A stretch of DNA of 64,000 nucleotides. It comes from Adineta vaga (lineage: Eukaryota; Animalia; Rotifera). Numbering within the stretch: position 1 is the stretch's first letter; every line of letters starts with the position of its first letter. This document shows, piece by piece, positions 1,397-53,913 of this stretch. Position numbers and translations under genes: made by a program. The DNA lies in assembly GCA_021613535.1 (NCBI GenBank), contig CP075493.1, forward strand, positions 11,160,001 to 11,224,000. Direction: 5' to 3'. The notes under the pieces were generated by a model. It was not told the DNA's origin. It saw only the letters and a program-made list of their open reading frames with translations, and searched no databases.

Positions 1397-4300
1397 TTAT
1401 ACTCGAAGCTTCGATTTAGTGTCTTTGTTTTTAGCAGCGGTCACTTTGGTAGCTGTTGTTGATTTCGTTGTTGCATCGAACCAAGTTTGAATTTTCTGTG
1501 TTTGTCCTTGAGCACTTTGAATCTCGGTTGTTTTTTTCTGTTGTGATGATCGGTTGTTTGTTTCTTGCTTCTTTTCTAAACCTCGTAGAATAACATATGT
1601 ATGTTGAAGAAGAATATCATCATCGACAGTGAAAGTATCAAGATCAGTGACACTGATTCGATCACTCCAAAGATCTGTACGTTCCAAATAGTATTGAAGT
1701 GGTGTTTCAAGACTAACATTAGCATTTAATACACGAATCATCAATCGTTTGAGCATTGATATCCAATTATCAATACTTTTCAAGGGATCTGCAATGTTAT
1801 CTTTTTCAAATGTCATACGAGAAAAACCGGTAAGTACACGATGACGTTCTTCATCTGTAAAAGTTTCTTCAACAAGTTCTTTCTTTATATAAGCACGTAG
1901 GACTTGATCAAATGCAGTTTCTTCAATCATTTCATATAAATCAATAATATATCGTAATTGAATAGCAGAAAATGGTGGTCGACGAAGAATATTTTCATTT
2001 AAACAAGTATATGAATGAATATGATGTTCAACAAACAGTTGAATCGATGTTGTTTCGGTCGCATTTTCTGAAATACTATTTCTTAAGTAAGTAAAAACAT
2101 AATCAAGTGAACCAAGATAATTGAGAATATCATCATTATTCATCGTTGAAAGAAGACGTTGTAATTTGATTCGTTCATCGTTAGGTAATTGTTGTTGTTT
2201 AATACGAGCACGTACATCATTGATAAGTGATGTATTTTCACCATATAATTCAAATTGATAATTAAGAAAACGTAATTTATCTGTATCAATTAATACTAAT
2301 GGACTAATCATATTTCGTAAAGTAGTTTCAATTTCTTCATAATCATAGATAATATCTTTACTTTTTCCATACTGATAGTTTAAAATTAGACTATCATCAA
2401 CTAATTTTTGACTTAATTCATTTCGATCGAGACGAAGAACATTTTCTGGACGAATCGATTGCAAAGCAATATGTTTCCGTTTTGTTTCTGTATTAACTAC
2501 ATGATCAACAGTATTATGAAAATAGTTAACAATTTCATTTTGTAATTCAGCAATGGTTCGAAGAACTGCTGCAAGAAGAAGACTACTTTCATCTTTCGAA
2601 GTATTCAATAACAGTGTTGCAATACTGGTTTGTTCAGCGAACTTTTCTTTTGGAAGAGTTAATTCAAATTTTGGTGTTTGACATCCATATCGAACTTCTT
2701 TTAATTTCAATGCATACCATGCATGTAAAAAATCATCGTACAATTGTTGTATAATACGTTGATCACCACCAGTGGTTAAATAATCAAGAATCTTTTTCTC
2801 TGCAGCATCATTTCGTTTGATGCGATAATTGAATTTTTCAATCAAATAATTGATAAATACAACAATAGCATACAGATATTGAATGTTAATATAATCATCA
2901 AAACGTTTGAACAGAAATGTTGTTACTGGATAAGCTCCTTCGCCGTATGGAAGTGTTTGCATTTTCAACATAAATTCATTTAAAAGATTGCAAGTATGAA
3001 ATGTAGTAACATTGAAAAAGTTCGAAAGTGGATATTGATTTTCATCTTCAAATAATTCATCAATGAAACTATCTAATGTTGGTGCGGAATCACGTTCTTG
3101 AATAAACTCAGCATAAGCTCGTTTATATTCGGCTATTTCGTTCGGAATGGAATTGATATGTGCGAAAAGAAGTTTGTGTTCAATTAATTGTTCGATTTGA
3201 AGAATTTGTTCATTTGTATTTATGAGACCACGTTTAGCAAATTGTTCATTAACAAGATGATTGAGAAGTTTATATATCCAAATATAACATTGTTGATTAT
3301 CTGTTGATGATTGAGCAAGGAGAGTATAATCTTTTTCGAAATGATCACGAAAATGTGTAGTTGATGATAATTTAAGACGTTGTTTTAAATCATCTGCAGT
3401 TAGATAATTAACATCATGTAAAAAGAGAAGAAGACCATGTGTTAGTAAATGTATGAAACGAAAGGAGACAGGTCGATTTAAATGATCTGGTTTTTCTCCT
3501 GTATCGCTTGTTACTGCCGTCTTTATGTTATGATATCCGAAACGAGCTGCTTGATTATATCGATCAATGTGTTGATTAATCACGCGAAGACCTTCGTCAA
3601 TAGGCATTTGAATTTGAGGAGGATCACGTTGAACAAGTATATTGTATCGCTCAGCACCAATTGGCTTCTTGCATAAAGGACATGTATTTCGATCGTTAGG
3701 AACGCCACAATCCTGAAAAATAAATACCCAAGGACAATCCATCGAGCATTGAAAAATAAATCTTCCACCAGCAGCAATAACACCTCGATTGAGACGATCT
3801 TGAACTTGAGTACGTACATCCATCATTTGTGTAATAACGGGATCACTCACAGTCATGCCGGGTAAACAGATAGTAGATAGGTGTTGAGCATAATTGTTAG
3901 GCATCTGTCGTTGATTATTAAACAAAATATTGCCGAGTACAGTGATATCTTTTTGTGATCTTAAAGAAATAAATATAGCCATAATATTCAAGGCAATTAA
4001 ACGTTTGTGAATTTCAATTGATTCCATCGTCGGTTGAAGATGAAAATAAGAATTATTTGAAAAATTTGAACACAATGAAATGAGATATCTATGACCTAAT
4101 GGAGTAAACGAGCGAATCAGCTCTTGACTTAGATCACGTTCAATAAGTTGAACGAATCCGTCATCCACTAGTACATTAGGTTGAAGAAAACGACAATAAT
4201 ATTGAATGAACCATATAAGAAGGGCGTAGCTAAACTTTTGTGATGCATTACATTCAAGGATGATTCTTTTTAGGTCATTGATCTTGTCTATATTATTAAA

Positions 4301-7300: not shown

Positions 7301-10300
7301 AATTAATGATTGAATATCGATTAAATGTTTTTCAAAACGATTGAGAAAAGGTGGATCACAATTATCGAAATCTCGTTTATGAATAAAGACTACGCAATAA
7401 AAATCATCATGAACAAGACAACGTGGATGATACAATGGACCCAAAGCAATACGACAATATTTCTTTCTGGCTGATACGGCAAAATTTTGATTAAATAGAT
7501 CGTAAAGATTATCATAAACATGACCCATTTGTCGCATGATTAAAGTAATATTTGTTTCAGCATATAGAATAACATCCATTAAAACTCGATAATTGTATTC
7601 TTCAGAATATGTATTACTTGATAATAGATCGCCAGGAAATGAACTACCTACAAGTGTACGAACGCTTACCTTACGCTTCTGTTGATTGATATTAATGAAC
7701 CGTTCGACATAATCAATCGCACTGTCGCTATCAGCAATGAGCATCAGATATCGACCCGATCGATTATTAAGAGTTTGATTGAGAAGATGATCAAAAGCTG
7801 GACATGGAAATTCATTAGTAAGAGTTTCTTGATTGATATAATGACAAAATTGTTGCCATAATAATGATGATCCATCGAGAACTCCGTCGAAATTGACCTT
7901 GAGTTGTTCTCGAATAATTTTGTATTTACTTGTGTTATTGTTCATTGCCATGATACTTCGAACGATTCCTTTAATCAGACTATAATAGTCTCGAAGGCCG
8001 AAATAATTCTCATGACTAGGTTGAGTTTCTTTCAGATTTTCATAGAGATCATAATAGGCTTGAGCAAGACTTTCCATAATAATCGATTCAAGTTGAATAG
8101 CGCGACCTCCTGGTTGTAATTGCATACTGCTTGAAATAGTCGTTCCGGTCAATTGAAGATCTGTAACATTTGGATCTGGAGTTGACAAATAAAGTGCACG
8201 ATTCATTTTCGATGCATCAAGTCGCCAATTAGAGATACCAACGAAACCATATTGATTATTTTCGACTTCGAGTTCTGCATGTAACACTTTTAATGGATTA
8301 TGCGGAGAAAGTTCAGCCAAGCCGATTTCATCAAAAACAATCACCGGTAATAATTCTGCTCTACTTTTTACTCGAGAATAATTTGCTGCACGTTCAAAAA
8401 CTTTGACGATACTTTCAGAAGTACAATTTTGTGATCCTTGAAAGGATACTGCGACGAGTTCAGGTAATACTTGAAAATATGGATCTTTGGAATTTTTGCC
8501 TTTGAGATTGCTGATCAGAATTTGAACAGCTGATGACTTACTACTTCCAGGTTTTCCACATAAGAATAGAGGAATACGATTAATGATGCAAGCAAAGAGA
8601 ACAAAGATATTATCTCGCAGTGCACGATTAGATGCTGTACCTGCTGGTAATTCCATCTTTTCATCAATCAGTTGTTTTTGTTCCGATTCCAGAACATATT
8701 TTGTCAAATAGTTCGGAATTTTTGCAATTTTTGGATATTGTGCACCAATTATTGATTGCATCTTATCCTTGTAAATTTCTTGCAATTTAACAGAGCGCAA
8801 TCGAAAATAATAGCAAAGCATCAATGAAATGAAGCTTGCACGACGAGGGTAAACAGATTCATCTTTTCCATTTTTATCCGCACGTTGATTCAATGAATCA
8901 AGAAACCAATTATATAGTCGACAAAAACGAGCAATATCACGTAAACTAACGCTACTAGTATCTTCAAGATCACGAAAATGATTTTGAGATTCAACAAGAA
9001 GATCAACAATAAGTTTGAATAATGTTGAATGAGGATCGAGATGATGACATGTATTTAACATTGCTTTAATATAAACTCTTTCAGTTGATGCATCTAAATG
9101 TCCATAATCCCAAATATATTCAAGCATAGTTTCTGGAATTGGAACAACTGTATATAAAAGACGACGATTTGTTCCTGCCCACAGTCGTTCTTGTTCTTTA
9201 TAACGATTTTTTCTCAATCCAATATGAGCATCGTCATTGATTTCCATTTTTTTTGTCTTAGTACGACGTGGATTACAAGCACCAAGAAAAACCATATTCT
9301 CTGGTAGTTGATTACCGAGAAAAGTTCTTTCACAAATAATCTCTTTCAAGAGGCCAATATTACTCGTTGTATTGAATTCATCGAAAAAAATCCATAAACG
9401 TTTATTTTTGGTTTGACATTCTTTAGCTTGTTGAATATAACCTTGCACAGTTTCTAATATTTTCTCCACTCCGATGCCAGCATGCATGCGAAAAACTGTC
9501 AAGTCATCATCTAAAATCTTCTGGCATAAGAACTGAATCAAAGCAGTTTTTCCACAACCTGAACAAGAAATCGGATGAATATAGATTTTTATAAGAGTAA
9601 AAAGCATTTTTACCTGTCTCCCCCATGATTAAAACTGGAATTCTACTTTGTACTCGTGTGTATATCAGAAGCATTTTCACAAAGTTGTCTGGTGTAAGAA
9701 CGTATTCCTTTCGTAGTTCTTCGGCTATCCAAAGCTGAAATATCATCACATCAGCATGATCAATTGATTTGGGTCGAACAAGAGCGTCTTTTGTCGAGCA
9801 TATCAAACATTGTTGCTGTCGAAATTCATATTGTCGAAAGCATTTCAGACAAATCGATTTGTTGAAATATTTTCTCGACAATGAAGCCAATTTAATAAAG
9901 AATTCTGCATGTGTAAGTTTAGTATATTCAGGAAACATAGTATTCTCTTCTGATGCTCTCTTTCGTTTTGCAGCTCGCTCATATATTTTGAAATATTCAA
10001 CAAGTGCTTGAGGAACATCACTTGAGCGTTTGTAAACGAATAATGGTTCATCAGTAGCCGTTAGAATCATTGTAAAAGGCTGAATTTTGTCCCAACGAAC
10101 GATTGCATCACTGAACGCAGCTGGTTCATTAGTAGCCACTGATCGTTGTTGTTTGCGAACATTTTCAACTGATATTGAAGTAAATTGGTTTGAAGATTCA
10201 AGTAGAGTTCTAATAAGATCCACACGAAGTTGTGGATGAGGAACATGTTCAATTAAAAAATAGCCACACCGAGAGAAACCTGTAAATAAACGATGAAAAA

Positions 10301-13300
10301 TGTTAATGTAAATCGATAGTTGAGTCCATGTAATATATTCCGCATTCTTTTTTTGAAGAAAATGGTCTTGAATTAGGCGAGAACACGTATTTAAGTCTAA
10401 TATTTTAAAAGTCTCAGGATTGATATTTTTCTTTATAATAGTTTTATTGGTAATTGCTTGTAAATAGTTAGCGACGATCTGGATTTCAGGAATGTTTACG
10501 TCGAGAGCAGTCCAATCAACATGATCGATATATGATGTTCGTTGTAAATGATGAAATAGTGGAATTTCAATTAAAGCCGAATGAGGTGATGCATCAAGTT
10601 CAATATAAACAGCAGTATCATTAGGAATTCCGACAGCTTCATGGCCAAATCGAAAGCTTCGAAAAAGAAGGAGACAATAAAGAATTTCATTTAATTGTGC
10701 AATATTATCGGTAGCACCGATATCAAGATGGATTGCAGCTCTTTGTAACTGCCCATATTTTGAACGAAGTCTTTCAGCCAATAAATCAACATCATAATCT
10801 CCCGAGATAGAAAATTTTACATAGTTTTTTCCGGTGGATTGAATATGCTGACGAATCACAGTAGACTTTCCTAAACCAGTAATCTTTGATGTGATCCATT
10901 GATACTGAGGAGTCATTCGTTGAATAGTTGTTTGTAAATCATCATTATTAAGTAATTCATGATCGCGTAGAACATTAAGCATTTGCATGGATTGAAGACC
11001 ATTGATCATTTGCAGGTCTGTTGCCTTAGTTGTTGTAACAATACCCATGCGAAACTTGTGTTGTGGACGTTCTTCTATTAATGCATGTAAAAGACGAACA
11101 AATTGATCTTGAATCGATTGAGAAAGAAGTTCCGGTCGAATGAGTTGATGGCATGATTGTGAATAGAAACAACGATATATAAATGCACGTGTTTGAATCC
11201 AATTCGTGTGTTGTGTGCAGTAAAAGATATGGCAAACTGAAGGTATGGTTGATGTGATATGGAAGAGTGAAAGAATTGCACGCAGAATACCATCATTTGT
11301 GGTTTCGATGAGAGAACATTTTTTCACTCTTTGATTTTCTTCAAGTGAATCTGGTATTTGTTTTTCTTGTGAAAGTAAACGGCCAATATTTTCCAATCGA
11401 TCTTCAGGATTTTGCGGTCTATTTACTGGCTTTTCAATGGAATTTGGATCAATATTAATGTATCTCAGAAGATGATAGCCTGGATCGCATAACGATGATC
11501 GACGATAAATATAATCTTCAATCTGCCAAAACTGAGCACCAGTAAAATAGGTTAAACCTATGTGCGTCTGATACATAGTACATAATTTTGTTTCCCAGTT
11601 TTTGAGTAAAGTAGTCAATGCATCACTATTTCTTTGCAAATCATCATAAGATCCATCAGCACATGAAAACGTCTCTTGTGCAAAAGGAAAGTTTGAAACA
11701 GAAGGATGACCTGCAGTATATAATCTCGTCAGTTTTTCAATAGTAGATTCAGTAAGTGTAGCAAAACGAATAAAATTATGTAATATTTCTTTATCGCGTT
11801 CACTGTTGGCTTGCATCTCAGATTTCTTATTAATATTACTTGAATATTCTAAGAGACGTGCACGATCACGTAGTTCACTCAAATCGGCAAATGTAACTTT
11901 GTGTTGTTTTTTATTATTGTTGTTGTTGTTGGTTGTCTGAGCACGTGGAAGGTCTACATTTACATCAAATGCTGTTTCGTGACGTCCTTTACGAATAAAA
12001 GAGATAGTCGATTTTTGTAAGATATCAGCAATTTGTCGTCGTTTCGATTGTTCTTTATCAGTTAATTCTAAATGGATACGTTTTATACTTGAGACTGCCA
12101 GAGATGATGATTCAACACATGTAAGTAGATCTTTAAATTGATCATTTTTCATTAACTCAGCAAAGCAATCAATTATATGATTAAGTTGAAATGGAACATT
12201 CTCTAATTCTTGACGTTTCGTTTTCATGGTATCGTAGGCACGATCAATGAATGTCTTAACAATAGCAAAATCGAAAATTGTTTTTGTATTGATTAATGTT
12301 TCATCCCAATCATTGACGGCTTCTTGTAAATTATAGATATCATCAGCTGTAAGTGAATGAAGAAAATCGAAGAGATCTGATGATGAACTATAGTGTGAAA
12401 TAAATGCAAGTACAGTATCTGGAAGCTGCTTCTCAATCTGGTTTTGATATTGTTCATAGATCAACGCACATTCTCCACCAGGTGTGTCTTCAGTAATATC
12501 ACAAACGTGATTAAATAAAGTTGAATCACAAACAACAGACATTCTTTCACTCAGCTGTTTTAAACCGTTGCAAACATGAGAAATGTGCAAACGATTTTTC
12601 CAAAACGATACAATAGAGACTAGTTGTGGTAAAGCTGCTGTATCGAGCAATGGTTTGAGCAACTCAAGATCATTAGCAGCATGGTGAATATCTGGAAATA
12701 AATGAACAATCTGTCGTATCGGAACATCTTGTCGTGTTTCACATATGTGTTGTAATATACAATGAAATTTTTCAAGAATAGTAACAGCGTCTTGGAGAAT
12801 GCCTATGCACGTATTTCTTACCATTGCAGTTGTCTTATTCGAAAACTCAACTTCGATATCATCCGGTGATACTGAAAAATAACCATAAATTATTCATTAT
12901 ATCGTATATACGTAAAATACCTGGCTCTTGCTGTTCCGATAAATCAATATCAGTGTCTTCTCGATGTTTTTCAATTGATTCTCTGACGGCTATTAAAAGA
13001 TAAAATCATTTTCCATTAATATTTTCTCTCTCTGAAAAGTGATTCCATTCTTAGTAAAGCTTACCTTTGATTGTTGTTTTCTGTTTAAGAAATGCTCGCC
13101 AACTTTGGGCATTTACATATGGATTGAGTTTTTCAGCGTATGGTACAATCTTTTGAAATTCTTTTGGTATTTGGATTGATTGTACAATAGCTTGCTCCAA
13201 ATGATTTTGCCAATTTTGTATTTGCGTCAAATAGTCGGTCTTGTCACTTCCTTCTTGGCAATACTCATTGAGACATGTAACGATTTTTTCATTTGTTTCC

Positions 13301-23107: not shown

Positions 23108-23521
23108 ATGATGAGAACCATAAAGCCAGAGAAAAGTAAGAATCGTAACAATAATAAGACAGAAGATAAAAATCTCATGGAACAACATCTATCGAATGAA
23201 CGGACTTTTTTATCGTGGACAAGAACTGGTCTTAATATATTTACAATTGGTTGTGCTATTGGAAGATTCGGTGGTACATCAAATACATCGACAACATTGA
23301 CGGATCCCGATTCTCAAAAAAAACCGCTTATCTCTGGCATCATTTTAGCTTTTGCTGGTATCCTGTGTTTAATTTATGGTGTTTGGAGATTTGTTCGAAA
23401 TCATCGGCATATCAAACATGGTACTTCATCTTATAGTCCTGATATATTTGGACCAATTATTTCGATACTAGTCTTGATGGCAGCATTAATTGCTATAATT
23501 ATTATTTTCTTTATCGTTTGA
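23108..23521 (+). CDS. DUF202 (YidH-like) small membrane protein, copy 1
   Basis: HLSNERTFLSWTRTGL signature followed by three hydrophobic segments. Confidence 0.88.
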   Translation: MMRTIKPEKSKNRNNNKTEDKNLMEQHLSNERTFLSWTRTGLNIFTIGCAIGRFGGTSNTSTTLTDPDSQKKPLISGIILAFAGILCLIYGVWRFVRNHRHIKHGTSSYSPDIFGPIISILVLMAALIAIIIIFFIV

Positions 23522-24482
23522 AAATTTTCTGCATTCTGTACATGAAATATCTTAATGTTTTTATATTATTTTATTATTTCAGTTAAAAAAGAAAAAATAT
23601 TAATAAAAAATATAAATGATTATATTCATTTTATATCATTATTATGATATTAAATCGATTACAAAGGCAACCATTGTTCATAGTTCAAGACAAAAGCGCA
23701 TGGTCGTTTAATTATATTATTATATCTATATACTGTGAGAATCAACGACAAATATGATATGAAAATTAGATGCAATTGATTCACTTTTGATACATAAAGA
23801 CGTTGAATATGCGTCTTTCTTCTTCTTTTCTCCTATTCACTTGTGTTTAGTTGATCTACGCTTTGCGCTCGCGCAGAACAACGCAGGTGTGCTTATCGAA
23901 GGTTGAAATGTGCTTTTGACGTTTCAATTTTTATTTTATCGGAACACGTATGAATATATATGAATAAATACGAACACAAGGACAATCCATCATAAAGCGA
24001 TATTTTGTGTCGCATGAAATCTTGAGGGTGTGGTTGCTCTAAATTTACTTTGAGTATATTCATTCTCTTATATTCAATAGGACAAGATCATGCAAAGGTT
24101 ATACAACCATCAGAAATCAACGGTATGAATATAGTTTTCTTTTTACTGCATACCATTCACGCACAGCTAACTTCAACAAAATATAATGAGTGACAATTTC
24201 CTACACTATCAATAAATAATATCTAGAATCCTTTTCATGTAATCGATCAATGGAAGAATGTTAATGATTTATCTTTCCTTCAATCAGATATACAACTATG
24301 CTATATTATCAATCATCACATCATATTTTGTCCTTATTGCCTTTTTGATATTCTCGAAAATTTACAGGTGGGCTACTATTCTACCATTTGAAATTTCATC
24401 AATGATCATATGTAGGTATACATTGGCAGCAAAAGGAACTATTGAGAGAATATTGTTTTTTTTTATATAGATTGTTGAAAAA

Positions 24483-24896
24483 ATGATGGGAATAGCAAAG
24501 CTAGGAAAAAGTAAGAATCGTAACAATAATAAGACAGAAGAGAAAGAACCATTGGAACAACATCTATCGAATGAACGGACTTTTTTATCTTGGACAAGAA
24601 CTGGTCTCAATATATTCACAATTGGTTGTGCTATTGGAAAATTTGGTGGTACTTCTAGTACATCGACAACATTGACAGATTCTGGTTCTCAAAACAAACC
24701 ACTTATTTCTGGTATCATTTTAGTGATTGCTGGTGCTCTATGTTTGATTTATGGTATTTGGAGACTTGTTCGAAATCATCGGCATATCAAACATGGTAGT
24801 TCATCTTATAGTCCTGATATATTTGGGCCAATTATTTCAATTTTTCTATTAATGGCTGTACTGATTGCCATAATAATATTTGTTTTTATCATATAA
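24483..24896 (+). CDS. DUF202 (YidH-like) small membrane protein, copy 2 (tandem paralog)
   Basis: Same length (137 aa), same motif and high identity to 23108-23521; flanks have diverged. Confidence 0.88.
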   Translation: MMGIAKLGKSKNRNNNKTEEKEPLEQHLSNERTFLSWTRTGLNIFTIGCAIGKFGGTSSTSTTLTDSGSQNKPLISGIILVIAGALCLIYGIWRLVRNHRHIKHGSSSYSPDIFGPIISIFLLMAVLIAIIIFVFII

Positions 24897-25243
24897 AATA
24901 CCGAGTCGTGTTTGTATATACAATTTTATGCTACATTACGGTCTCTTTGTTAATATAAACGAGGCATGTGGATGTAAAATAAGTAATACCTGGATGTATT
25001 TACATATCAGTTTTTACTAATATCTTAAACGCAAAAAACTCATATACCAGGTGAATTTGCTTGTTAAATGCTTCTTTTGTGACACCACATGTTGCGTCAG
25101 TAAGAAAAGAAAAAGAAAAAAAAGATTAGTTTTTATTTTTTTTGCGTACCACGTGCATCATAACAGAACGATTAAAAATAAGGCATGTAAAAAAGTATGA
25201 ATAATTATTGTTTCTTCCAACTTTCATACACACACACACAATT

Positions 25244-26566
25244 ATGATAAGTGATAATAAGTCTCGAACTTTATTCGAACATCTACCTGTGGAAATTATT
25301 CTTCACATCTTAGATTTTTTTTCATTTCAACAACTTCTCACTTCTTTCTCTAATCTTAATTTATGCATCAATGCAATTATTCAGTCGGTTCGACACAAAT
25401 ATCATGGAGTTAGAAACAATAACATCGATTCCATCCAACTTCTTCAAGCATTTCCAACTCTCATCGATAGTTTCGTGATCATTAATTCTGATACAGTTGA
25501 TTTGACACCTTTGATCAATTTACGTTCACTTTCATTGGAATACGCCACGTATACACAACTGAACAGTATTCGACCAGAATGTTTTCCTCTACTTGAAATT
25601 CTTCATATCAAAGGTAAATGAATGACTATCGATAACCATGATCTTTATGTTTTCTTCTCTAAGATGTCCATGAAAGTTCGAAAGATAATGCAAAAGTCAT
25701 ACATAATATATTTGAAGTGATTCTGTCGAATGGTTTTCCTCGACTTCGAATCTGTACAGCATTGGATGTTGGAACTGTACCATTCAGTAAAACATGGACA
25801 GGATCACCTAATCTTCGAGTTCTTAACCTACCAATAAGAACAGATGAGGATAAAGAAAAACTTCGACGAAAATTTCCACAAATATGTCGATTGACAACTT
25901 ATGAACAATCATTAATCGATCCAAATCCAAGTAAATTATATGATTATTTGTCAGAAACAGTTTTATACTGAGGAGACTATATCTATTTCACTTTTTGTAG
26001 ATATCCTTGTGAACCGTAGGAAACGTTTTGAACAAGATATTCAAAAACTCAAAGAATTGGAATTAGAAAATAGGTTTATATTTGACAATTATTCAGGACA
26101 TCATTCCTTTGATACAAATAATCCACCACCTCGTTTCAATAACACAAGAATAGATAAACGTATTATCAAAGAAGGTTTCACTATCATTCAAGGTCGAATT
26201 TTATTACAAACTGAACCATATCGTGATGGATCATTTCTTGTTGAAATTGCATTTCCGCAAGAATATCCATTTAAACATCCTAATATAACATTTCTAGATC
26301 CTATTTATCATCCGAATATTTCAAAGTCAGGTGCATGTTGTGGCTGTGATTGTGGTTTTCGTTTTTCAACTCCTGTTATGTATCGACCGACAACAACATT
26401 GAATAGTATTATCATGAAGATTATTGAAACCATTGAACAACCGTTTCCTATAGATGCAGAGGAATCTCATAACCCTAAATGTCTTATTGAATATCGTAAT
26501 GATTACCAGACATTTTACAAGAAAGCATTCGAATGTACATTAACCTATGGACGACCACGCTACTAA
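25244..26566 (+). CDS. F-box + LRR-like + UBC (E2, UBE2L3-like) fusion protein, 400 aa, 3 exons
   Basis: Exons 25244-25613, 25664-25930 and 26001-26566 total 1203 nt in frame, with phase-1 GT-AG introns. F-box LFEHLPVEIILHILDFF; LRR-like LINLRSLSL and FPRLRICT; E2 core EPYRDGSFLVEIAFPQEYPFKHPNITFLDPIYHPNISKSGACC. Confidence 0.85.
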
Positions 26567-40917: not shown

Positions 40918-42918
40918 TCATAAATGCGTATCTTTTAGATGTGATTTGACATATTCTAAGTTAGTTCTATAAACTTGAATATGAGGATGATTATCGGACA
41001 ATGATTGTTCAGCTATCGTCAATGCTCGTTGACAATATGAAATTCCTTTCGAATGATTTCCAGTAAAGAATGAAACCATACCAACATGACCATATATACC
41101 GGCTAAATCAGGATGATTTGAAGGAAGAATTTCTTGTTGAATTACAAGTGATTTTTCATAGTATGGAAGTGCTTTTATATAATCATTCATTCTAACATGG
41201 ACTGATCCAATGTTAGTATACGAATTAGCAAGATGAGAATCATTTGATGGAAGAATTTTCTGATAGATTTCCAATGCTTTTTCGTAGAAAGAAAAGGCTT
41301 TGGTAAATTCACTCGTCTTCGAATAGAACATGCCAATACTATTGTAAGAATTAGCCAGATCGAGATCATTTTCATGAGGATTTTTTTCAAAGATATCTAT
41401 GGCTTTTTCAAAGTAGGAAAATGCTTTTGAATTCTCACCGATATTACCATAGATGATAGCCATATCATTGTAACATCTAGCTACGTCAGGGTGCTCCAAA
41501 GAAGAAGTTTTCTGATGGATCATCAATGATTTTTCATAACATGACAATGCTTCTGTATATTTTCCTTGATAATAATTAGTACATCCAAGTTGATAGAATA
41601 AGTCACCTTGTTCTCTTTTATCCGTTGTTTGAATGAGTATTTTACGATATAAATCTTCGGCTTTATCATATTGTGCTAATTTTATCATTAATTTTCCTAT
41701 TCGAAGCCATTCGATTGATCCTTTCGTTTCTTCACGCACACGTTCAATGAAAGGATGACTTTGAAGATAATTTCCGTCAATTAAAGTTAATTCAACTTGC
41801 CAAAGACGATTATTTCCATCGATCTGTTTCATTTGATGAATACGAAAACATGTATGCATAGAAAAAAGAATCTGTTGTTTAGTTTGCTGAATACAAACAT
41901 TGGCAAAAGTTATTGTACTTATTGAAAAATCAATAGTTATGATGAATAGAACACCTACTAAATCATATCTAGCCATAGTTCTTCGAGCAAAATCAAAGGA
42001 TTCAGTACGATCTTTGTTTGCATATAAAAAATTGTTCATTGATAACGCACCATCTTTTGTCCTCATTAATAGATTGAAATCTGCATGAGACATACCCTGA
42101 CCTCGATATACAGTGAGTGAACTTGATGGTTGGTGACTACCGTATTGTTCTGCGTGAAGAGTAACAATTTGTTTATGAAGATCACGTATAAAGAATCCCA
42201 TTTTAAAAATAACATCTACGTTCAATGTACGTAGTGCATCATTCAGGATCGAATAAAATATACAATTATCTGTATACCAACAAATGGGTTGTTGACGACG
42301 ATAATCTGTTTGAAATCGATCTATATTTTTCAATTGTACGCTATTGTTAACGAATTGTTCACGACAATATCTAAGCAATTCACGTATATGTGAGTGTTGA
42401 AAGTCCATACCATATATAATCTCTTTTAGTAACAGTGTATACATAAAATTATGATCAACGATTGTAGTTGTTGGAAAGAATGTCATAGGGATTGTATTCT
42501 GATTGTAATCATCAGTGGCATATTTTAGTGCTTCACAAGCCGATGTTATATCTGTGAAGATTCCATGTATTTTGAACCATTGTTGAATCCAGCTTTCGTC
42601 TGAAATCTTGCCTTCAGAAAAAAGCAAAATGACAGTTACCTGTACTTGATTATGTATGACTGGTATTATTTTCTTTCCAAGGATATTCGAAACAAGTAAA
42701 AATAGTGTATCTTTTCTCGTATCACTAATAAATTCAATACAGGCATCTAAATCATTGAATAGATCGATAGTGTTGATAACTGCTCGTAATTTTGTAATAA
42801 AATTATGATATTCCGCATTGTTAATGTCATTGTCTAACCAAATGAGACGATAGTTTTGAATCATTCGCTTAATTTTGTACGTTCTGTTTATCACATGTGC
42901 TATTTTGGTGAATGACAC
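40918..42918 (-). CDS. ART-like domain + TPR-repeat protein (catalytic motifs degenerate)
   Basis: N-terminal LIWLD domain, WYT...LNDALR...FFIRDL...VYRGQG...NNFLYAN...QQILF, then about 6 TPRs (HPDLA..Y.NIG). Start codon uncertain. Confidence 0.88.
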   Translation of the reverse strand: MSFTKIAHVINRTYKIKRMIQNYRLIWLDNDINNAEYHNFITKLRAVINTIDLFNDLDACIEFISDTRKDTLFLLVSNILGKKIIPVIHNQVQVTVILLFSEGKISDESWIQQWFKIHGIFTDITSACEALKYATDDYNQNTIPMTFFPTTTIVDHNFMYTLLLKEIIYGMDFQHSHIRELLRYCREQFVNNSVQLKNIDRFQTDYRRQQPICWYTDNCIFYSILNDALRTLNVDVIFKMGFFIRDLHKQIVTLHAEQYGSHQPSSSLTVYRGQGMSHADFNLLMRTKDGALSMNNFLYANKDRTESFDFARRTMARYDLVGVLFIITIDFSISTITFANVCIQQTKQQILFSMHTCFRIHQMKQIDGNNRLWQVELTLIDGNYLQSHPFIERVREETKGSIEWLRIGKLMIKLAQYDKAEDLYRKILIQTTDKREQGDLFYQLGCTNYYQGKYTEALSCYEKSLMIHQKTSSLEHPDVARCYNDMAIIYGNIGENSKAFSYFEKAIDIFEKNPHENDLDLANSYNSIGMFYSKTSEFTKAFSFYEKALEIYQKILPSNDSHLANSYTNIGSVHVRMNDYIKALPYYEKSLVIQQEILPSNHPDLAGIYGHVGMVSFFTGNHSKGISYCQRALTIAEQSLSDNHPHIQVYRTNLEYVKSHLKDTHL

Positions 42919-43077
42919 CTATCACGTCAAGTTATATCACATGTTGGAAATTTTGTTCTTTATTTCTTTTCTTTCTCTTCGCACACAATTTCCAACGAAT
43001 GAAATTATTTCTTTAAAACACTTTAATCATAAACATATCTCACGCAAAAAAGGAGAAAATGTCAGTTATGTAGATTT

Positions 43078-46000
43078 CTACTCTATGTTAGCTGATGTAC
43101 GTTGCGTAATTCGAATATGAGGATAGTTTGGTGGTTGTGAATAATGTGGAATATCAAAAGGGAGTTCAGCAAGTGAAATTTCTTGAGAGGAAATATTCAT
43201 GGTCGGAATCTGGAATTCAGCCGGTTCTCTAGAGAAACGAATTGATTTCGGAGAATCTAAAGCAAGAACGTTAGAATTCTTGTTCAATGCTTGCAAATAA
43301 AGTGGAAGTGCTTTCCAGTGTTGATCCATTGTGGAATAGATATTGCCGATTGAATTGTAGGAAACAGCGAGATCACGTTGATTTTGAGAAGGCTGTTTTT
43401 GATGAACTTCTAATGCTTTTTCATAGTATGAACATGCTCTATAATATTCACCTTGAAATTCAGAAGTCATACCAAGATAATTGTAAGTTGTGGCCAAAAT
43501 GGGACTATCAGCAGGTAAAATCTTGTGATCAATAAGAAGACTTTTTTCGTAATAGAACGATGCGCGTGACAGATCACTCATTCGAAAATAGATATTACCG
43601 AGATTTTTGTAGGAAATAGCCAATTCATCCTGATTCAACGGAGAAATACGTTTCCAAATTTCTACTGCCTGTTGATAAGCTTTAAGGGCTTTTGCATAAT
43701 CACCGATGTTTTCATGTATGAAGCCAATAGTATTGTAGGATTTTGCTAGAATAGGATGGTCGGAAGGGATTGTGTTTTGATAAAGTTGATGTGCTTGGAT
43801 TTGGCAGGAAAGTGCTTTAGAATATTCTTTTAATTCAATATAGGTATTGCAAAGATTTCGATAGTAGATAGCTAAATCAGAATGATTTCCAGAGAAAAAT
43901 TTCTGATGGATTTTAATTGTTTTTTCAAGATAAGGAATAGCTTTTAAAAATTGGCTTGTGTGACAGTACAAAAGCCCTAGATTATTGTGAAATGTAATCG
44001 AATCGGAAGGCGCTAACTTGGAATTCTTTTCAGCAATTTTTACAGCTTGTTGATAACATCGCAATGCTTTATCATAATGCTTCATTTTTGAATACACATT
44101 TCCAAGACTATTATAGGAATTCGCTAAATCAGAATGGTTTTCAGGTAGAATGTTTTCTCGAATCATCACTGAGTTTTCCAATAGGGGCCGTGCTTTTGTA
44201 TATTGATCTATCATTGCATATGTTAATCCAGTATTATAATAAGAAATGACTAAATCGCTATGATCTGAAGGAAGCGTTCTTTTACGAATTTCCAAAGATT
44301 TTTCATAGAACGAAATAGCTTTTGTATATTGAAAAGTTTGATTGTAAACTAAACCGATATTGTTATGCGTCGTTGCCAAATCAGGATAGTTGATTGGTTG
44401 ACTTTTTTCATGTATTTCCACAGATTTTTCAAGAGATGTTAATGCTTCCGTATAGTTCTTCATCTTGAGATATACTAAGCCGATATTGTTATGAGAAATA
44501 GCTAAGTCCGAATGATTTGAAGGGAGAATTTTATCTCGAATTTCTAATGATTTATAAAGAAACGAATGTGCCTTGGAATAATCATGTTGTTTCGCATATG
44601 TTATACCAATATTATTGTAGAAATGCGCCAAATCAGGATGATCTGAAGAGAGTTTTGCTTCACCAAATTGTACACATTTGTTTAAGTAATAAAATGCTTT
44701 TGAATAATCATTCATATTGAGATAAGCTAAGCCAATATTATTATAGGAAGTTATCAAATCAGGATGGTCTTCTGGTAAGATACTTTTACGAATTTCAAGT
44801 GATGATTCAAGATAGGAAAGGACTTTGGAATATTTATCCATCATAGTATATACTAACGCAATATTGTTATACGATACAGCTAGTTCGTCATTACACGACG
44901 AAGGTAATTTCTTACGAATTACTAAAGATTTTTCAATGAATAATAATGCTTTGAAGTAATCATACGTTTGAAGATACACCAGTCCAACATTATTGTACGA
45001 AGTAGCTAAATTGGGATGGTTAGGTTGCAATTTTGTTTCACGAATTTCTAATGACTTTTTGAGAAACGATAATGCATTGGAATAATCATTCATCTTGTAA
45101 TAAATTAATCCTATCGTATTAAATGTAGTAGCCAAATGAGGATGATTTGGACAAAGATATTTTTTGTACAGTGGAATTGCTTTCTCTAAAGACGAAAGTG
45201 CTTGAGAGAACTTCTCCATTTTGGCATGTATGAAACCAGTATTATTGTAACAAGTTGCAATGTATGGATGATTTGAAGATAGACTTTTTTGACAGATTTC
45301 AAAGGCTTTATCGATAAAGGCAAGTCCTTTTGAATAGTCACCCATACTTGCATAGATCAATCCTATATGATTGCAAGATTGAATCGTATTGGGATGATTT
45401 GGAGGTAGAATTTTTTCGTAAATTCGTACTGCTTCTTCATAAGCAGACAAAGCTGTTGAATAATCACCCTTTTTTATTGATACTAAACCGATACTATTCC
45501 AAGAATCAGCTAAGTCAGGATGATCTAAAGGTAAAATATTCTGCCGAATTTCAAGAGCTTTTTGAATAAATCTATTTGCATCAGAATAATCGTTGACGTC
45601 GTCTTCCACTGAATCGTTTGTATTGGTATTATTCGGAAAGCATGAACAATGTTCGTGTTTCTGTTTTAGTTCTTCAGCCGTAAATATTTTTGAATATTCA
45701 GTCATTCGAATGTATATTATACCGATATTATTGTAAGAAGCAAATAAATCTGGATGTTTCTCAGGTAAGATTTGACTTCGTAGATCAAATGCTTTTTTAA
45801 TAAAGAAAAATGCTTTTGAATAATCACCGATTTTTTCATTGATCATGCCATATTTATCATAGGATGCAGCGAGAGCAAGACTATTTGGAGATGAATTTAG
45901 TTTTTGAATATTAATAGATTTATCAAGCCATTTGAGTGCTTCGCGATAGTCTCCCATATGATCATGAATAGAACCAATATTGTGGTATAATTGAGCTAAT

Positions 46001-47802
46001 TCGATCGAATCTGGAGAAAGTGTATTTTCACGAATATACAATGATTTTTGTATAAATGAAAGCGCTTTTGAATAGTCACCGAGTTTATCATGTATAGAAC
46101 CTAGACTATTGTAAGATTGAGCTATATCGAGTTGATCAGTAATAAAAGTATTTTGACGAATTTTTAATGCTTCTTCAGAGGAAGAAAGTGCGTTAGTATA
46201 TTCACCGAGCTTTTCATAGATCACTCCAAGTCGATAGAATGAATGTGCGAGTTCATCGGAGTTTGAAGAAAGACTTGCACTACGAATAGTATGATATTTC
46301 TTAAACGATGAAAGTGCTTTTGAATAATCGCCTATGTAATCATACATGAAACCAATATTATTGTAAGATTTAGCTAAATCAAAATCATTTTGACTAAGGA
46401 GTTCTTCTTTGATTTCAATAGCTTCTTCATAGAATTGTATGGCTTCTTTGTGTTTACCTTGACGGTTTTTTATCTTACCAAGACTTTCCAAATATATCAT
46501 TCTTTTTTTCTTGTCAGTAGTTTCCTTCATCAGTATATGATATACTTCTTCGGCCTTATCATCATTTTTAACTTTGATCAACCATTTTCCTAGTCGATCC
46601 CAACCATTCGCATTGCCGATCATTTCTGCTGTTGATTCGTTAAGATTGTAGAGTTGTGGATCTACTTCATTCACTAACGTCAGCTTCACAAGCCATAGAC
46701 GTGTGTCATTGTCGATCTGTTGAATGTTATCAAGACGAAAAATAGTATTCAATGTAAAAAGATATTCTGATATCGAATCATTTTGATCGTTAATATCACT
46801 GAGTCGAGCAAACGAAGCAGATGAAATGAGTGGATCAATTGTCATTTTAAAGAGAACACCCATTGAATTCGTTGTTTTCAAGGCATTTTGTGCAAAAACA
46901 AACGCATTCTTAGCACTTGTTGTAGTCGTTAGAAAATTGTTGAATGATATTAATCCTTTCGTTGCTTTCTTCATTGTAGAGAAGTCTGTACGTGACATTG
47001 TTCGACTTCGATAAACAATAAATACTTGTTTATGTTCTTCGACTTGTTTCTCACGTTGTTCTTGTATTTCTTGATGTAAACTACGAATGAAAAAATCCAT
47101 GTTTTTGATACCTTCGATATTCTGATGACGCAGAGAATGATTGAGCATAGAGAAAAGAAAACGTCTTTGCGTAAACCACCAAATAGGCGTATGATTTACA
47201 TACTCCTGTTCAAAAGTATCGATAATATTACTTTGCATCATATTGTTACGACGACAATATGAAAGAAATGTTTCGAATGATTGTTCATGATAACTGTTGT
47301 TGTCAAGAAGAATTTCTTTGAGTATTTTCATGTATACGAATTGACAATCAGTTTTCGCTGCTCTAGTATCTCTTGCTGAACTAGTGATTGCTGAAGCAAA
47401 ACTCATTGAAATTGTATCCTGATTCGATTGTTGAACGGTTTGTTTGATTGAATTGTATATTGAGATAATGTGTGAATTAACTTCTTTTACTTTTGACCAT
47501 TCATTTAACCATCGATCTTGAGGCAGATTCGTACGATAAAATACATAAATTGAATCAAGTTGACGCATACCGTGAACTTTTGGTATTAGCTGTTGAGCTA
47601 AGGCATCTGAAACAATGATGAAGATTGTTTCGATTTGATTTTGCTCGAAGAAATCTATACATTGATTAATATCATCAAATCTAGTGACGCGATCAAAAAT
47701 GTCTTTTAAATTATCTATTGTAATTTTCATTTCTCGATCGAATTCATCATAATCCAAATCCACCAAAAGCACATGAAGATTTGCGACGAAAAACTGTTCC
47801 AT
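43078..47802 (-). CDS. ART-like domain + long TPR array protein
   Basis: 1574-aa single ORF: WWFT...LNHSLR...VYRS...NNFLTTT...SEYLF, then more than 20 42-aa kinesin-light-chain-type TPRs (HPDLA.SYNNIG.VY). Confidence 0.92.
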   Translation of the reverse strand: MEQFFVANLHVLLVDLDYDEFDREMKITIDNLKDIFDRVTRFDDINQCIDFFEQNQIETIFIIVSDALAQQLIPKVHGMRQLDSIYVFYRTNLPQDRWLNEWSKVKEVNSHIISIYNSIKQTVQQSNQDTISMSFASAITSSARDTRAAKTDCQFVYMKILKEILLDNNSYHEQSFETFLSYCRRNNMMQSNIIDTFEQEYVNHTPIWWFTQRRFLFSMLNHSLRHQNIEGIKNMDFFIRSLHQEIQEQREKQVEEHKQVFIVYRSRTMSRTDFSTMKKATKGLISFNNFLTTTTSAKNAFVFAQNALKTTNSMGVLFKMTIDPLISSASFARLSDINDQNDSISEYLFTLNTIFRLDNIQQIDNDTRLWLVKLTLVNEVDPQLYNLNESTAEMIGNANGWDRLGKWLIKVKNDDKAEEVYHILMKETTDKKKRMIYLESLGKIKNRQGKHKEAIQFYEEAIEIKEELLSQNDFDLAKSYNNIGFMYDYIGDYSKALSSFKKYHTIRSASLSSNSDELAHSFYRLGVIYEKLGEYTNALSSSEEALKIRQNTFITDQLDIAQSYNSLGSIHDKLGDYSKALSFIQKSLYIRENTLSPDSIELAQLYHNIGSIHDHMGDYREALKWLDKSINIQKLNSSPNSLALAASYDKYGMINEKIGDYSKAFFFIKKAFDLRSQILPEKHPDLFASYNNIGIIYIRMTEYSKIFTAEELKQKHEHCSCFPNNTNTNDSVEDDVNDYSDANRFIQKALEIRQNILPLDHPDLADSWNSIGLVSIKKGDYSTALSAYEEAVRIYEKILPPNHPNTIQSCNHIGLIYASMGDYSKGLAFIDKAFEICQKSLSSNHPYIATCYNNTGFIHAKMEKFSQALSSLEKAIPLYKKYLCPNHPHLATTFNTIGLIYYKMNDYSNALSFLKKSLEIRETKLQPNHPNLATSYNNVGLVYLQTYDYFKALLFIEKSLVIRKKLPSSCNDELAVSYNNIALVYTMMDKYSKVLSYLESSLEIRKSILPEDHPDLITSYNNIGLAYLNMNDYSKAFYYLNKCVQFGEAKLSSDHPDLAHFYNNIGITYAKQHDYSKAHSFLYKSLEIRDKILPSNHSDLAISHNNIGLVYLKMKNYTEALTSLEKSVEIHEKSQPINYPDLATTHNNIGLVYNQTFQYTKAISFYEKSLEIRKRTLPSDHSDLVISYYNTGLTYAMIDQYTKARPLLENSVMIRENILPENHSDLANSYNSLGNVYSKMKHYDKALRCYQQAVKIAEKNSKLAPSDSITFHNNLGLLYCHTSQFLKAIPYLEKTIKIHQKFFSGNHSDLAIYYRNLCNTYIELKEYSKALSCQIQAHQLYQNTIPSDHPILAKSYNTIGFIHENIGDYAKALKAYQQAVEIWKRISPLNQDELAISYKNLGNIYFRMSDLSRASFYYEKSLLIDHKILPADSPILATTYNYLGMTSEFQGEYYRACSYYEKALEVHQKQPSQNQRDLAVSYNSIGNIYSTMDQHWKALPLYLQALNKNSNVLALDSPKSIRFSREPAEFQIPTMNISSQEISLAELPFDIPHYSQPPNYPHIRITQRTSANIE

Positions 47803-49804: not shown

Positions 49805-51006
49805 CTACATGTTGTTTTCTTTCAATGTTTTTCTTCTCGCAATTGGTTTTGTTCGTTGAATATTTAAACGAAGATTGATTTGTTCAAATGATTCTTCAGT
49901 TAATGTTACATTAATTAATGTAAATAATTTGTAGAAAACTAATCCATGAAGTTTATATCGAATGGTATTAAGTCCATCTTTTTTGTAATCATACTTTGAA
50001 TGAAGTATAATATTTCGATTAGGATTTACTTCACTCGATGTATGATTATATGAACGAATCATTTGATAACGTGCAATATTTACGGAATAACGTACGATTG
50101 ATCTTTTTAGTATTTTAATTATCCGTCGATACATATCATCATCTTCACCACCCCAACCCCAATAAATAGTTGCATAACCATTAACATTCATAAAATCTGA
50201 TAAACTAAATGCTGTTACACCACCGAATAGAGTTGGATAGAGTAAAGTATAATTAAATGTATCGACAGCCACTGACCTAAATAACAAAAAGATTTCCAAC
50301 AAATTCTATATAAGATACACTCGATGTAATTTATATTCACGTACATATGTTTTGGTTGTTTTCCACATTTATAACTATTTCGTAAATCTTCTGGTAAAAG
50401 ATCAACATCATGAAAAATGAAACAATCAAATGCATATAATTTCCTTGCTTCAAGAAAACCGATATTGAATAGAGCTGCTCGATTAAATTGTTCTTGTCCA
50501 TGTTGATTAACAACAAATATTGTATAATCAAGTTGTTGTTTTTGAAGAAATGAATGAATATTATTCAAAAATAATTTCAAATGAATTTTACGATTTCTAT
50601 AACAAACAATTAATGCTAAACGTTGTTCCGATCGGCATGTTTTCGGAAAATAATGTCCGCCTAGATGAAGATTTTTTCCATAATGTCGTTCAATAATATC
50701 AAATGAATAAATAGTTTTATTGATGATTACTCGATGTAAAGTAGACGTATGATTACATATTGAATAGGATTTATAAATCGAAGGATTAGGTGTTATAAAT
50801 GAAGAAAATGTCATTGTTTCTGATTGAAGGGTACTATTATGGACGAATATTTTTGTAATAGGTGACGAGAATTGATGTAAATTGAATGATGATGATTTTC
50901 TTTCTATTAGATTTTTTTTTATTTGTAAAGTAAGGATATAATAAAATATTTCCAACAAAACAATAAAACATACGATTAAAAGCATCGACCATCGATTGAG
51001 AAACAT
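49805..51006 (-). CDS. GT7 beta-1,4-galactosyl/N-acetylgalactosaminyltransferase, type II Golgi protein (2 exons)
   Basis: N-terminal TM anchor; FNRA, FHDVDLLP, PKHM|SVAVD (intron 50277-50344), LFGGV and YWGWGGEDDD. Confidence 0.93.
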
Positions 51007-51412: not shown

Positions 51413-51846
51413 TTATGAAGTATAAACACGATGAATATTATATCTAGCAGTCACTTTTTTCTGTGCTATCTTGTAGAAAAGCCCACCGAATGTATCAACG
51501 ATGTTATATAACATATTGACATTTAGTTTGAATGCTGCTTGACGAACTTCACCCACCCATTGAAACCAACCACCTAACTCCTCACATGTACTATTAAGAC
51601 ATGAACCAAATGCATCGTCACATGAATCCAGTGTCTTTCCACATGTTTCATAGCAAGTATCATGCTCACTGCAACACTCTTTCATAGTGCACCTTGGTCG
51701 ACAACTGTAAGAGGTATATCAATGTCTATTAAAGCAGAACCACTTCCATTAGGAGAACGACGTAATCGATGATGATTGTCGCTGTGTACAGCATGCATTA
51801 GAACGAAGAAGAACAAACAGAGATAGGCAGCCTGATACATATTCAT
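51413..51846 (-). pseudogene. Group XII-like secreted phospholipase A2 with a 1-bp frameshift
   Basis: The signal peptide from ATG 51846 and PNGSGS are one base out of frame with CCSEHDTCYETCG...CDDAFGSCL (His-Asp dyad motif); shift at about 51686. Confidence 0.75.
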
Positions 51847-52074
51847 GCTGTCGAGTATTCTTCGAGAATTGATTATACAGAATGAAAATATTATTCCATA
51901 AGCTTTTATATAGTAACGATAAGTGAAGTATATTATGGATGAAAAAACTGCGGTTGAATAAGCAAGAATAGAATTTAAAATATAAATTTACGCATAAAAA
52001 TGATATTGCGTATGTAATATAATTAGTTTATACTTTTTGTACTTTTATTCAGAATCGAGGGTACAAAATCGATG

Positions 52075-53913
52075 TCATCGAAATTTGTCAAATGGAAATG
52101 CATTTCTTAATGGAGTTAAATCAATCTTTGGGAAAACTTCTCCTCTCATTTGAATTGCTTGCTCAATTGTTGTTGCATATCGAAGTGTTCGATTTGTTCC
52201 TTCATAATAATCATGAAACTTGAATAAATTTAACAATGGTGATTTTAATAATCTCGCCGGTATTCCAAATGCTTCTGCTACAACAATTCCATGTAAAGCA
52301 GTTGATATGACAAATTTACTTTCAAGAATTAAATTTATCAATTCATTCCAAGGTAAAAATGTATGAACAGTAACAATTTGATTCAAACCCGATGAAAGCA
52401 ATTTCTTTTCAACATCAACGTAATGCAAAATAAGCAATATAGAAATGATTGGCTTCATAGATTTCTTGTAAGATGGTAAATAATACGGTAATAATAATGC
52501 TGGATCACCATAGATTTTCGGAAGAGTTAAATTATATTTGTTCATAAGAAGATTTCGTGTTCGTGGACCTCGAACAGCTCGAATATCAAGTGTATTTATG
52601 AGTGATGAATCGAAATAGAAAGGAAATTTTAAAGGATTCAATATTCCAGATCCCCATATGACATCATTTCGACAGGCAAAATCCATGATACTTCCAATAG
52701 CTAATAATTTCGATTTTTCACAAAATAAATCAGGTTGAATATCGTTCATGATTGAAATATTTGAACCGACCATCGTACTAACAAGAATATAAGATAATTT
52801 ATCACCAAAATTTTCATGTTTATTCTTCGACTGCCAATAAAATAATGGAAACTCTTTCTTGGTTTGAATGATTGAAGAATGATTCATATTTCGATATGTT
52901 AATAAGAGAAGTAACATGAAGGTGAAAAGAAGAAATAAGAATTTTCGACGTGTTAGAAATCGAAAAATATTCTCATTGATTTTATAGAATAAAATGCCCA
53001 AAAAAATGAAGAAATTTCCGATTATTATCATCATCAAATTCATTGTAGAATTCATATAGATAGATGAAACTAAAATCACCACCGGTCGTTTTAATATTGA
53101 TAATAAACTATACGAAACTAATTGTACTCTTGAACAGATTATAATCGATGTACTATTTGAAAGAAAACTATATAAACCTATGAAACATAAGATTTTTCCA
53201 TTTCTATATAATAAAACATCAGAAACACCAATAATCAACATGAAAATGAATGAAAACAATGTACTAATTCCATATAAAACTATTTGTTTGTGTATTTCAT
53301 CAATATTGTCCAGATCGATAGATTGAATACAAAAATTTCGAATAACTATCAACAGATTCATTAATATACCAAGTAGAACGATTATACTAAATAAATGACA
53401 TTGATTATTACACCATGTGATTAATATTACACCGAATATCATTAAAATGGTTCCAATCCATTTTTCTGTGTTTAAATCATTTTTCTTGGACGTTCGTAGA
53501 AAATAGACAAATATCTGTGCGAATAATGGTTCTAAAGTACGAATTGTATGTACACAAGGAATATTTGACCATGTTAACATTATATTCATCGTTAATATTG
53601 CCAAAAAATGTAATAAACTAGCAAATAGAAATGATACAAGCATTTGTTTCGTATATGTCCCATCCATAATCAATCTACTTATCGATGAAGTTTTATATGA
53701 TTGATTGATTAAGTACGATATGATAAAAATTAAACTTATTCCAAATAAACATGACAAATTCTGAATAAATACTCCAAGACATATGAATGATAAAACAGTC
53801 GCATGATCATTAGACGATAACGTTGAATGAAGAAATTTCTCAAGAAATAAAGAAAAACCAATTGAAGATGAATACCATATTCCGACCAGAAGCCATATCC
53901 AATCTTTCTCCAT
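52075..53913 (-). CDS. Fusion of TPT/SLC35E-type phosphate-translocator domain and GumL/ExoV-like polysaccharide pyruvyltransferase
   Basis: Intronless 612 aa. Ten TM helices with VHTIRTLEPLF and ILKRPVVILVSS; an 11th TM; then NFGD, AIGS, IWGSG, IRAVRGPRTR, YGDPALLLP, ISTALHGIVVAEAFGIP and FKFHDYYEGT. Confidence 0.88.
   Translation of the reverse strand: MEKDWIWLLVGIWYSSSIGFSLFLEKFLHSTLSSNDHATVLSFICLGVFIQNLSCLFGISLIFIISYLINQSYKTSSISRLIMDGTYTKQMLVSFLFASLLHFLAILTMNIMLTWSNIPCVHTIRTLEPLFAQIFVYFLRTSKKNDLNTEKWIGTILMIFGVILITWCNNQCHLFSIIVLLGILMNLLIVIRNFCIQSIDLDNIDEIHKQIVLYGISTLFSFIFMLIIGVSDVLLYRNGKILCFIGLYSFLSNSTSIIICSRVQLVSYSLLSILKRPVVILVSSIYMNSTMNLMMIIIGNFFIFLGILFYKINENIFRFLTRRKFLFLLFTFMLLLLLTYRNMNHSSIIQTKKEFPLFYWQSKNKHENFGDKLSYILVSTMVGSNISIMNDIQPDLFCEKSKLLAIGSIMDFACRNDVIWGSGILNPLKFPFYFDSSLINTLDIRAVRGPRTRNLLMNKYNLTLPKIYGDPALLLPYYLPSYKKSMKPIISILLILHYVDVEKKLLSSGLNQIVTVHTFLPWNELINLILESKFVISTALHGIVVAEAFGIPARLLKSPLLNLFKFHDYYEGTNRTLRYATTIEQAIQMRGEVFPKIDLTPLRNAFPFDKFR

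Follow-up and report, generated by a model that had tools for sequence, protein, structure and literature searches.

An intronless open reading frame from Adineta vaga, a bdelloid rotifer, joins a phosphate-translocator-type carrier to a predicted pyruvyltransferase

Inspection of a 64,000-nucleotide stretch of the Adineta vaga genome (contig CP075493.1, positions 11,160,001 to 11,224,000), referred to as the window, revealed a reading frame of 612 aa on the minus strand at 52075-53913. According to the ORF call, Pfam searches and DNA contigs, its product (P0001) combines a carrier of the TPT/SLC35 type, an extra helix and a pyruvyltransferase domain. The open reading frame list and the translation displayed neither introns nor internal stop codons. 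A first-pass annotation had described one intronless frame at the same coordinates without giving a strand. The carrier half (aa 1-312; 52978-53913, minus strand) comprises ten predicted helices of the DMT/TPT type and was recognized by a Pfam TPT match below the cut-off, a profile match to the plastid translocator GsTPT2 and hydropathy. It is followed by a basic RRK patch (aa 322-324) and an eleventh hydrophobic helix, FLFLLFTFMLLLLLTY (aa 325-340). Patch and helix lie at 52894-52950 on the same strand and form a predicted type-II anchor, as judged from hydropathy and a comparison of 19 fusions. The remainder (aa 352-612; 52078-52860, minus strand) was assigned to a pyruvyltransferase domain of predicted GT-B fold by Pfam PF04230, a structural model, a structure match and the motifs NFGD (368-371), RGPRT (448-452), GDPALLLP (469-476), LHG (540-542) and FKFHDYY (564-570). 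All motifs quoted in the first-pass annotation were found in the P0001 sequence.

That the halves might have been mis-assembled had been raised as an objection to the fusion. Sequencing run X4 covered all 30 bins of the window including the intergenic ones, indicating that it behaves as DNA, and its contigs 52541-52907 and 52878-53340 tile the junction between carrier and enzyme. Together with the conservation of the architecture in Adineta and Rotaria proteins this demonstrated that the fusion is real. Three runs taken as RNA yielded short pieces of low depth in the enzyme half only (52466-52681 and 52145-52299); they leave the junction uncovered and weigh neither way. The GC3 value of P0001 (0.225) falls within the range of 0.16-0.25 calculated for 16 reading frames of the window, and the neighbours are animal genes coding for rhodopsin-type receptors, an ionotropic glutamate receptor, kelch and TPR proteins and a spliced GT7 glycosyltransferase. 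The protein sequence of P0001 is already present in NCBI/nr.

The GT7 gene (49805-51006, minus strand) is beta-1,4-galactosyltransferase-like, matches Pfam Glyco_transf_7N and 7C, shares the strand of the fusion and is located approx. 1.1 kb downstream of it. Although its product could synthesize the acceptor sugar, read contigs point to several GT7 paralogues, so the adjacency of GT7 and the fusion may be due to chance. At approx. 51440-51850, likewise on the minus strand, a small gene below the threshold of the ORF list encodes a secreted protein with a signal-peptide-like start and a match to group XII secretory phospholipase A2 (PF06951, E 1.2e-9). This gene sits in two frames, which points to an intron or a frameshift, and is covered by two runs taken as RNA. 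Further features of the window are two very long adjoining reading frames at 1397-12824 on the minus strand (2736 and 1105 aa), three 137-aa frames within 23108-25621 on the plus strand (at 23108, 24483 and 25208), possibly representing tandem copies, and two adjoining large TPR-repeat frames at 40918-47802 on the minus strand (666 and 1574 aa). The 2736-aa frame showed weak matches to AAA and RZ-type zinc finger domains and is presumably RNF213/mysterin-like.

Relatives of P0001 were searched in several collections. Among 19 matches, eight beyond the query were named bdelloid proteins with 40-55% identity, six of them carrying both Pfam domains; this set consists of one A. vaga protein (P0003) and seven proteins of Rotaria (sp. 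Silwood1, sp. Silwood2, R. sordida, R. socialis and R. magnacalcarata). The ESM Atlas contained a 60-member cluster (score 0.93) with PS_pyruv_trans in 97% and TPT in 93% of the members, all of them eukaryotic and most commonly assigned to Mollusca. A second Atlas query reached the same cluster, and both were counted as one source. A profile of ten fusions produced 11,484 matches at E ≤ 0.001 among 1.84 billion representatives, and among the 150 matches listed at least 15 spanned both halves. No mollusc was named among ten looked-up rows of this search; a probable kinship with the mollusc-rich cluster is drawn from the Atlas features. Further fusions were uncovered by a profile search with the enzyme half, and a scan of metagenome contigs returned enzyme-only matches. 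Named fusions outside the rotifers derive from the two basidiomycete yeasts Mixia osmundae (XP_014566838.1) and Sporobolomyces blumeae (GAA6062546.1 and GAA6060577.1) and from Amoeba proteus and Selenidium serpulae. The full-length fusions of the latter two stem from transcriptome assemblies, indicating that the architecture is transcribed as one mRNA in these organisms. The fusions of all four species share domain order, extra helix and key residues with P0001, whereas the carrier halves of fusions from other eukaryotes are only 16-22% identical and their enzyme halves 24-46%. The fusion of a TPT-type carrier with a pyruvyltransferase domain is thus not specific for rotifers but recurs in fungi, amoebae and other eukaryotes. 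Of the novelty proposed in the first-pass annotation, rarity was weakened, as the architecture is patchily distributed across eukaryotes and present in NCBI and UniRef with both Pfam domains; the lack of a characterized representative stood among the matches and literature searched.

For residue comparisons, 19 full-length fusions (six from rotifers and 13 others) were aligned, leaving out partial proteins and near-duplicates; two of them (P0014 and P0168) lacked a Pfam TPT match and were admitted because of their profile matches. Several further groups of proteins were observed in addition. The rotifer-like carrier-only proteins P0010, P0011 and P0020 end just before the enzyme domain and P0146 consists of anchor and enzyme only; these may be separately called exons or true split genes. 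P0041, P0042 and P0149-P0151 are fusions whose TPT half is closer to the canonical type (Pfam 137-139 bits); they were encountered on metagenome contigs reaching 365 kb. Some pyruvyltransferase-like proteins (P0013, P0034 and P0036) are joined to a GH130-like domain.

In P0001, the Pfam TPT match (PF03151) extends from aa 45 to 310 (E 1.2e-5) and reaches 25.3 bits at a gathering cut-off of 30, which is exceeded by the orthologues P0002 and P0003 (40 and 44.6 bits). A seven-row profile of the N-terminal half matched a single PDB sequence, GsTPT2 (5y78, E 7e-9), at model positions 92-322. The count of ten helices was deduced from the GsTPT2 alignment and hydropathy; a single-sequence scan recovered eight of the ten plus the extra helix. 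A full-length AlphaFold model was too poor (pLDDT 42) and was set aside. These matches support a carrier of the TPT/SLC35 type, consistent with the phosphate-translocator identity proposed at first pass.

Carriers of the TPT type perform a strict 1:1 exchange with phosphate. In GsTPT2, the phosphate ligands are Lys204, Tyr339, Lys362 and Arg363, and exchange is strongly reduced when these residues are mutated (bioRxiv 10.1101/169169). In the plant PPT, replacement of Phe262 by Asn widens the pocket and lets PEP in (bioRxiv 10.1101/169169). GsTPT2 residues were mapped onto the fusions by profile alignment with an offset of 89, checked on His185, Thr188, Phe192, Phe263 and Tyr339. The Lys204 position is occupied by Arg125 within the TM4 motif HTIRTLEP (aa 122-129; 53527-53550, minus strand), and Lys362 and Arg363 correspond to Lys275 and Arg276 in the TM9 motif LKRP (53083-53094, minus strand; LKRPVVI from aa 274). 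The Tyr339 position is taken by Ser252 (53158-53160, minus strand). Of the four ligands, one is therefore conservatively replaced, one lost and two identical, leaving the phosphate-ligand set of plastid translocators incomplete in P0001. Across the 19 fusions, the Lys204 site is basic in 18, Lys362 is kept in all, Arg363 in 18 and Tyr339 in 15, P0001 being the only one with serine at the latter site. Since these sites are mostly kept, the fusion family looks like a group of phosphate-ester carriers, as far as an alignment can tell. An Asn of the PPT type at the Phe262/263 position was found in none of the 19 fusions (P0001 carries Ile189), nor did the comparison reveal conservation of GsTPT2 His185. 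The fusions thus lack a PEP signature, a specificity for PEP would be invisible at this level, and PEP as the carried substrate, as put forward at first pass, was not borne out by the residues. In comparison with the plastid translocators GsTPT2 (5Y78) and AtPPT1, P0001 retains the Lys/Arg pair and a basic residue in TM4 but differs in the positions just described, in the absence of a plastid and in the added C-terminal enzyme.

Identity between P0001 and the other rotifer copies is 36-51% in the carrier half and 57-67% in the enzyme half. The carrier has diverged more and may, judging from its residues, be impaired or altered. One reading, which we regard as rather unlikely, is that it is degenerate or moves another solute, be it a nucleotide sugar or some other phosphate ester. 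In that case it would mainly serve as membrane anchor of an enzyme that is active in the lumen and receives PEP through a tyrosine-keeping paralogue or another transporter. The replacements at the Tyr339 and Lys204 sites, the missing PPT Asn and the low Pfam score are compatible with such a role, and A. vaga does possess a paralogue, P0003, with tyrosine at the Tyr339 site. On the other hand, all carrier helices of P0001 appear intact, and Lys275, Arg276, Arg125, Arg192 and the EP motif have been kept and are near-invariant across the 19 fusions from distant eukaryotes.

The enzyme half of P0001 matches Pfam PS_pyruv_trans (PF04230) at aa 400-554 with 52.4 bits (E 9e-14), well above the cut-off of 25.3; NCBIfam gave no match for the protein. 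The ketal-pyruvyltransferases of PF04230 include WcfO and CsaB besides Pvg1p and WbbZ. Family motifs described in PMC10629545 for the pyruvyltransferases WbbZ and Pvg1p are NxGD, RxxxS/T and a conserved His. All three are present in P0001 (N368-F-G370-D371, R448-GPR-T452 and H541), paired here by motif pattern and order rather than by residue-level structural alignment. Within the 19 fusions, the Asn is found in 18, the Gly, Asp, Arg and Ser/Thr in all and the His in 17. A model of aa 352-612 calculated from a 34-row alignment reached a pLDDT of 92.9. When compared with 48,161 chains by VIA-align, the model matched best to WbbZ (6x1l; Z 13.2, rmsd 3.8, 199 aligned residues) and second best to Pvg1p (5ax7; Z 13.0, rmsd 4.0, 214 aligned residues), followed by UDP-GlcNAc 2-epimerases with Z values of 12.1 and 11.2. 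Foldseek gave its highest query TM-score (0.56) to Pvg1p. A sequence-level PDB search with the enzyme half returned nothing meaningful and matched neither Pvg1p nor WbbZ.

WbbZ of Klebsiella pneumoniae, a terminal O-antigen pyruvyltransferase, is of similar size and shares the motifs, but is a stand-alone bacterial enzyme without fused carrier and only 16% identical to the P0001 domain. Pvg1p of Schizosaccharomyces pombe shares predicted chemistry, fold and motifs with P0001, while the latter belongs to another PF04230 branch with 11% identity, for which no characterized member was among the matches found. Both WbbZ and Pvg1p are proven PEP-dependent pyruvyltransferases (PMC10629545, PMC10435577), and phosphate is released in the reaction (PMC10435577). 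Based on the model, the enzyme half is a predicted ketal-pyruvyltransferase with a two-Rossmann GT-B fold nearest to WbbZ and Pvg1p. Domain match, motifs and fold all agree with the pyruvyltransferase assignment made at first pass.

All 19 fusions contain a hydrophobic segment 47-97 residues past the TM9 lysine. The net positive charge before this helix is higher than behind it in 15 fusions, equal in two and reversed in two. The additional helix noted at first pass is therefore a constant, type-II-like element of the architecture. The termini of SLC35-type carriers are cytosolic. Given cytosolic termini, the extra helix would position the enzyme in the lumen. In GsTPT2, the N- and C-terminus of the ten-helix bundle are located on one side (bioRxiv 10.1101/169169). 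By analogy, the luminal enzyme would be anchored like the type-II protein Pvg1p (PMC4872226). A hydrophobic N-terminus was also displayed by 25 of 26 scoreable relatives from Chlamydiota, compared to two of 20 from Pseudomonadota and one of eight from Bacteroidota, so that the closest bacterial enzymes are apparently exported as well. In environmental chlamydiae (L001-L041 and others), pyruvyltransferases with signal-peptide-like N-termini were observed.

The position of P0001 in a PF04230 sub-branch lacking characterized matches, its 11-16% identity to WbbZ and Pvg1p and the presence of epimerases within approx. 1-2 Z units of these two enzymes would also accommodate a GT-B enzyme of other chemistry or acceptor class, or a domain facing the cytosol, unrelated to pyruvylation of luminal glycans. 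We consider this improbable, as the domain carries the three pyruvyltransferase motifs and passes the PF04230 cut-off, the extra helix and charge bias favor a luminal domain, and the partner, a carrier of the phosphate-ester family, fits PEP as donor.

To trace the origin of the fusion, the two halves were analyzed separately. In the carrier-half tree of the 19 fusions, the rotifer rows grouped with three eukaryote-like proteins (100/99) on long branches. The enzyme-half tree was calculated from 55 rows left after manual thinning of a larger set, with a bootstrap that was not fully settled. It joined the rotifer rows to fungal, Amoeba and other fusions (91/98, unstarred) and placed the P0041 group among chlamydial enzymes (92/79). 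A single origin of all 24 eukaryote-type rows was rejected (p-AU 0.007; LG+G4, long branches included). These trees make the P0041 group a candidate for independent capture or domain replacement, and bacteria may have contributed enzyme domains to the carrier scaffold on more than one occasion. In a scan of 35 of the 64 parts of the collection, the best prokaryotic matches came from Chlamydiota with 42-49% identity, and an initial quick tree had placed the rotifer enzymes among Chlamydiota (SH-aLRT 93, unstarred). A direct chlamydial donor was dropped when the rotifer rows moved to the fungal and Amoeba fusions upon addition of more eukaryotic rows. The AU test rejected neither a placement of rotifers with the chlamydial group (p-AU 0.24) nor a union of the main eukaryote group and the P0041 group (p-AU 0.20). 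No donor is therefore claimed, and the rotifer gene may have been acquired from a microbial eukaryote, inherited vertically from long ago or remodeled by domain replacement. A viral origin of the fusion was discarded, as neither viral contigs nor phage records gave a match to the two halves together. Lak megaphages of Prevotella (H1-H10) harbor a stand-alone relative of the pyruvyltransferase domain with approx. 34% identity to P0041.

Although bdelloids are reported to hold many foreign genes and the conserved tyrosine has been lost from P0001, it is improbable that the reading frame is an assembly chimera or what is left, silent or decaying, of a gene acquired horizontally: 612 codons are open, contigs of the DNA-like run X4 tile the junction, A. 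vaga and five Rotaria taxa possess orthologues with this architecture, the catalytic motifs are intact and GC3 agrees with that of host genes.

The closest functional parallel is found in S. pombe, where the type-II Golgi pyruvyltransferase Pvg1p depends on the separate Golgi PEP transporters Pet1p and Pet2p (PMC6801904, PMC4872226). In contrast, P0001 unites carrier and enzyme in one polypeptide. The analogy had been drawn in the first-pass annotation and gains support from the fold and motifs shared with Pvg1p and from the published roles of the Pet proteins and Pvg1p. All in all, the P0001 fusion is real and its gene intact; it is a good candidate for a pyruvylation system of the fission yeast kind condensed into a single protein.

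With a probability of roughly 60%, P0001 resides in the Golgi, where it takes up PEP, attaches pyruvate to terminal sugars on the luminal side and exports the phosphate released. The fused carrier would exchange cytosolic PEP for luminal phosphate. The enzyme half would then transfer pyruvate from PEP to a terminal sugar in the Golgi lumen, probably of the galactose type, and the phosphate set free would leave through the carrier half. Glycoproteins or glycolipids would thereby receive an anionic cap in the form of a pyruvate ketal. Being fused, the enzyme would stay with its source of donor; direct channeling is neither required nor claimed. The sequence data establish the undivided reading frame, the two domain identities, the kept motifs and the repeated occurrence of the fusion; we infer PEP/phosphate antiport, Golgi location, cytosolic carrier termini, the luminal enzyme and the galactose-type acceptor.

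Two reviews that call the information on eukaryotes scarce list pyruvylated glycans of sponges, seaweeds and the mollusc Aplysia kurodai (PMC6801904, PMC6994554). Sponges had been named at first pass as the usual animal example; the mollusc has to be added. As a characterized eukaryotic pyruvyltransferase, the portions of these reviews consulted name only Pvg1p of S. pombe (PMC6801904, PMC6994554). No paper describing a TPT-pyruvyltransferase fusion was found in the open-access literature; a compendium of metazoan horizontal gene transfer (PMC13342648) may list the gene in its supplements. A search of 12 of the 16 supplementary files of PMC11258130 did not find the term 'pyruvyl'. We tentatively suggest, as a proposal somewhat more doubtful than the reading of P0001 itself, that the fusion family represents the glycan-pyruvylation machinery of many eukaryotes including animals, couples PEP import, pyruvate transfer and phosphate export in one polypeptide and lies behind the pyruvylated glycolipids of Aplysia.

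Fusions of the P0001 type provide a concrete candidate gene for glycan pyruvylation in animals, which is testable simply by complementation of fission yeast. A working fusion would furthermore allow glycoproteins to be given a negative, sialic-acid-like cap by means of a single gene; such capping has been an aim in the engineering of Pvg1p (PMC4872226). The rotifers offer a culturable animal lineage with paralogues that differ at one phosphate-binding residue. If the fusion family has the role suggested above, bdelloid rotifers are predicted to carry an undescribed anionic surface glycan capped with pyruvate.
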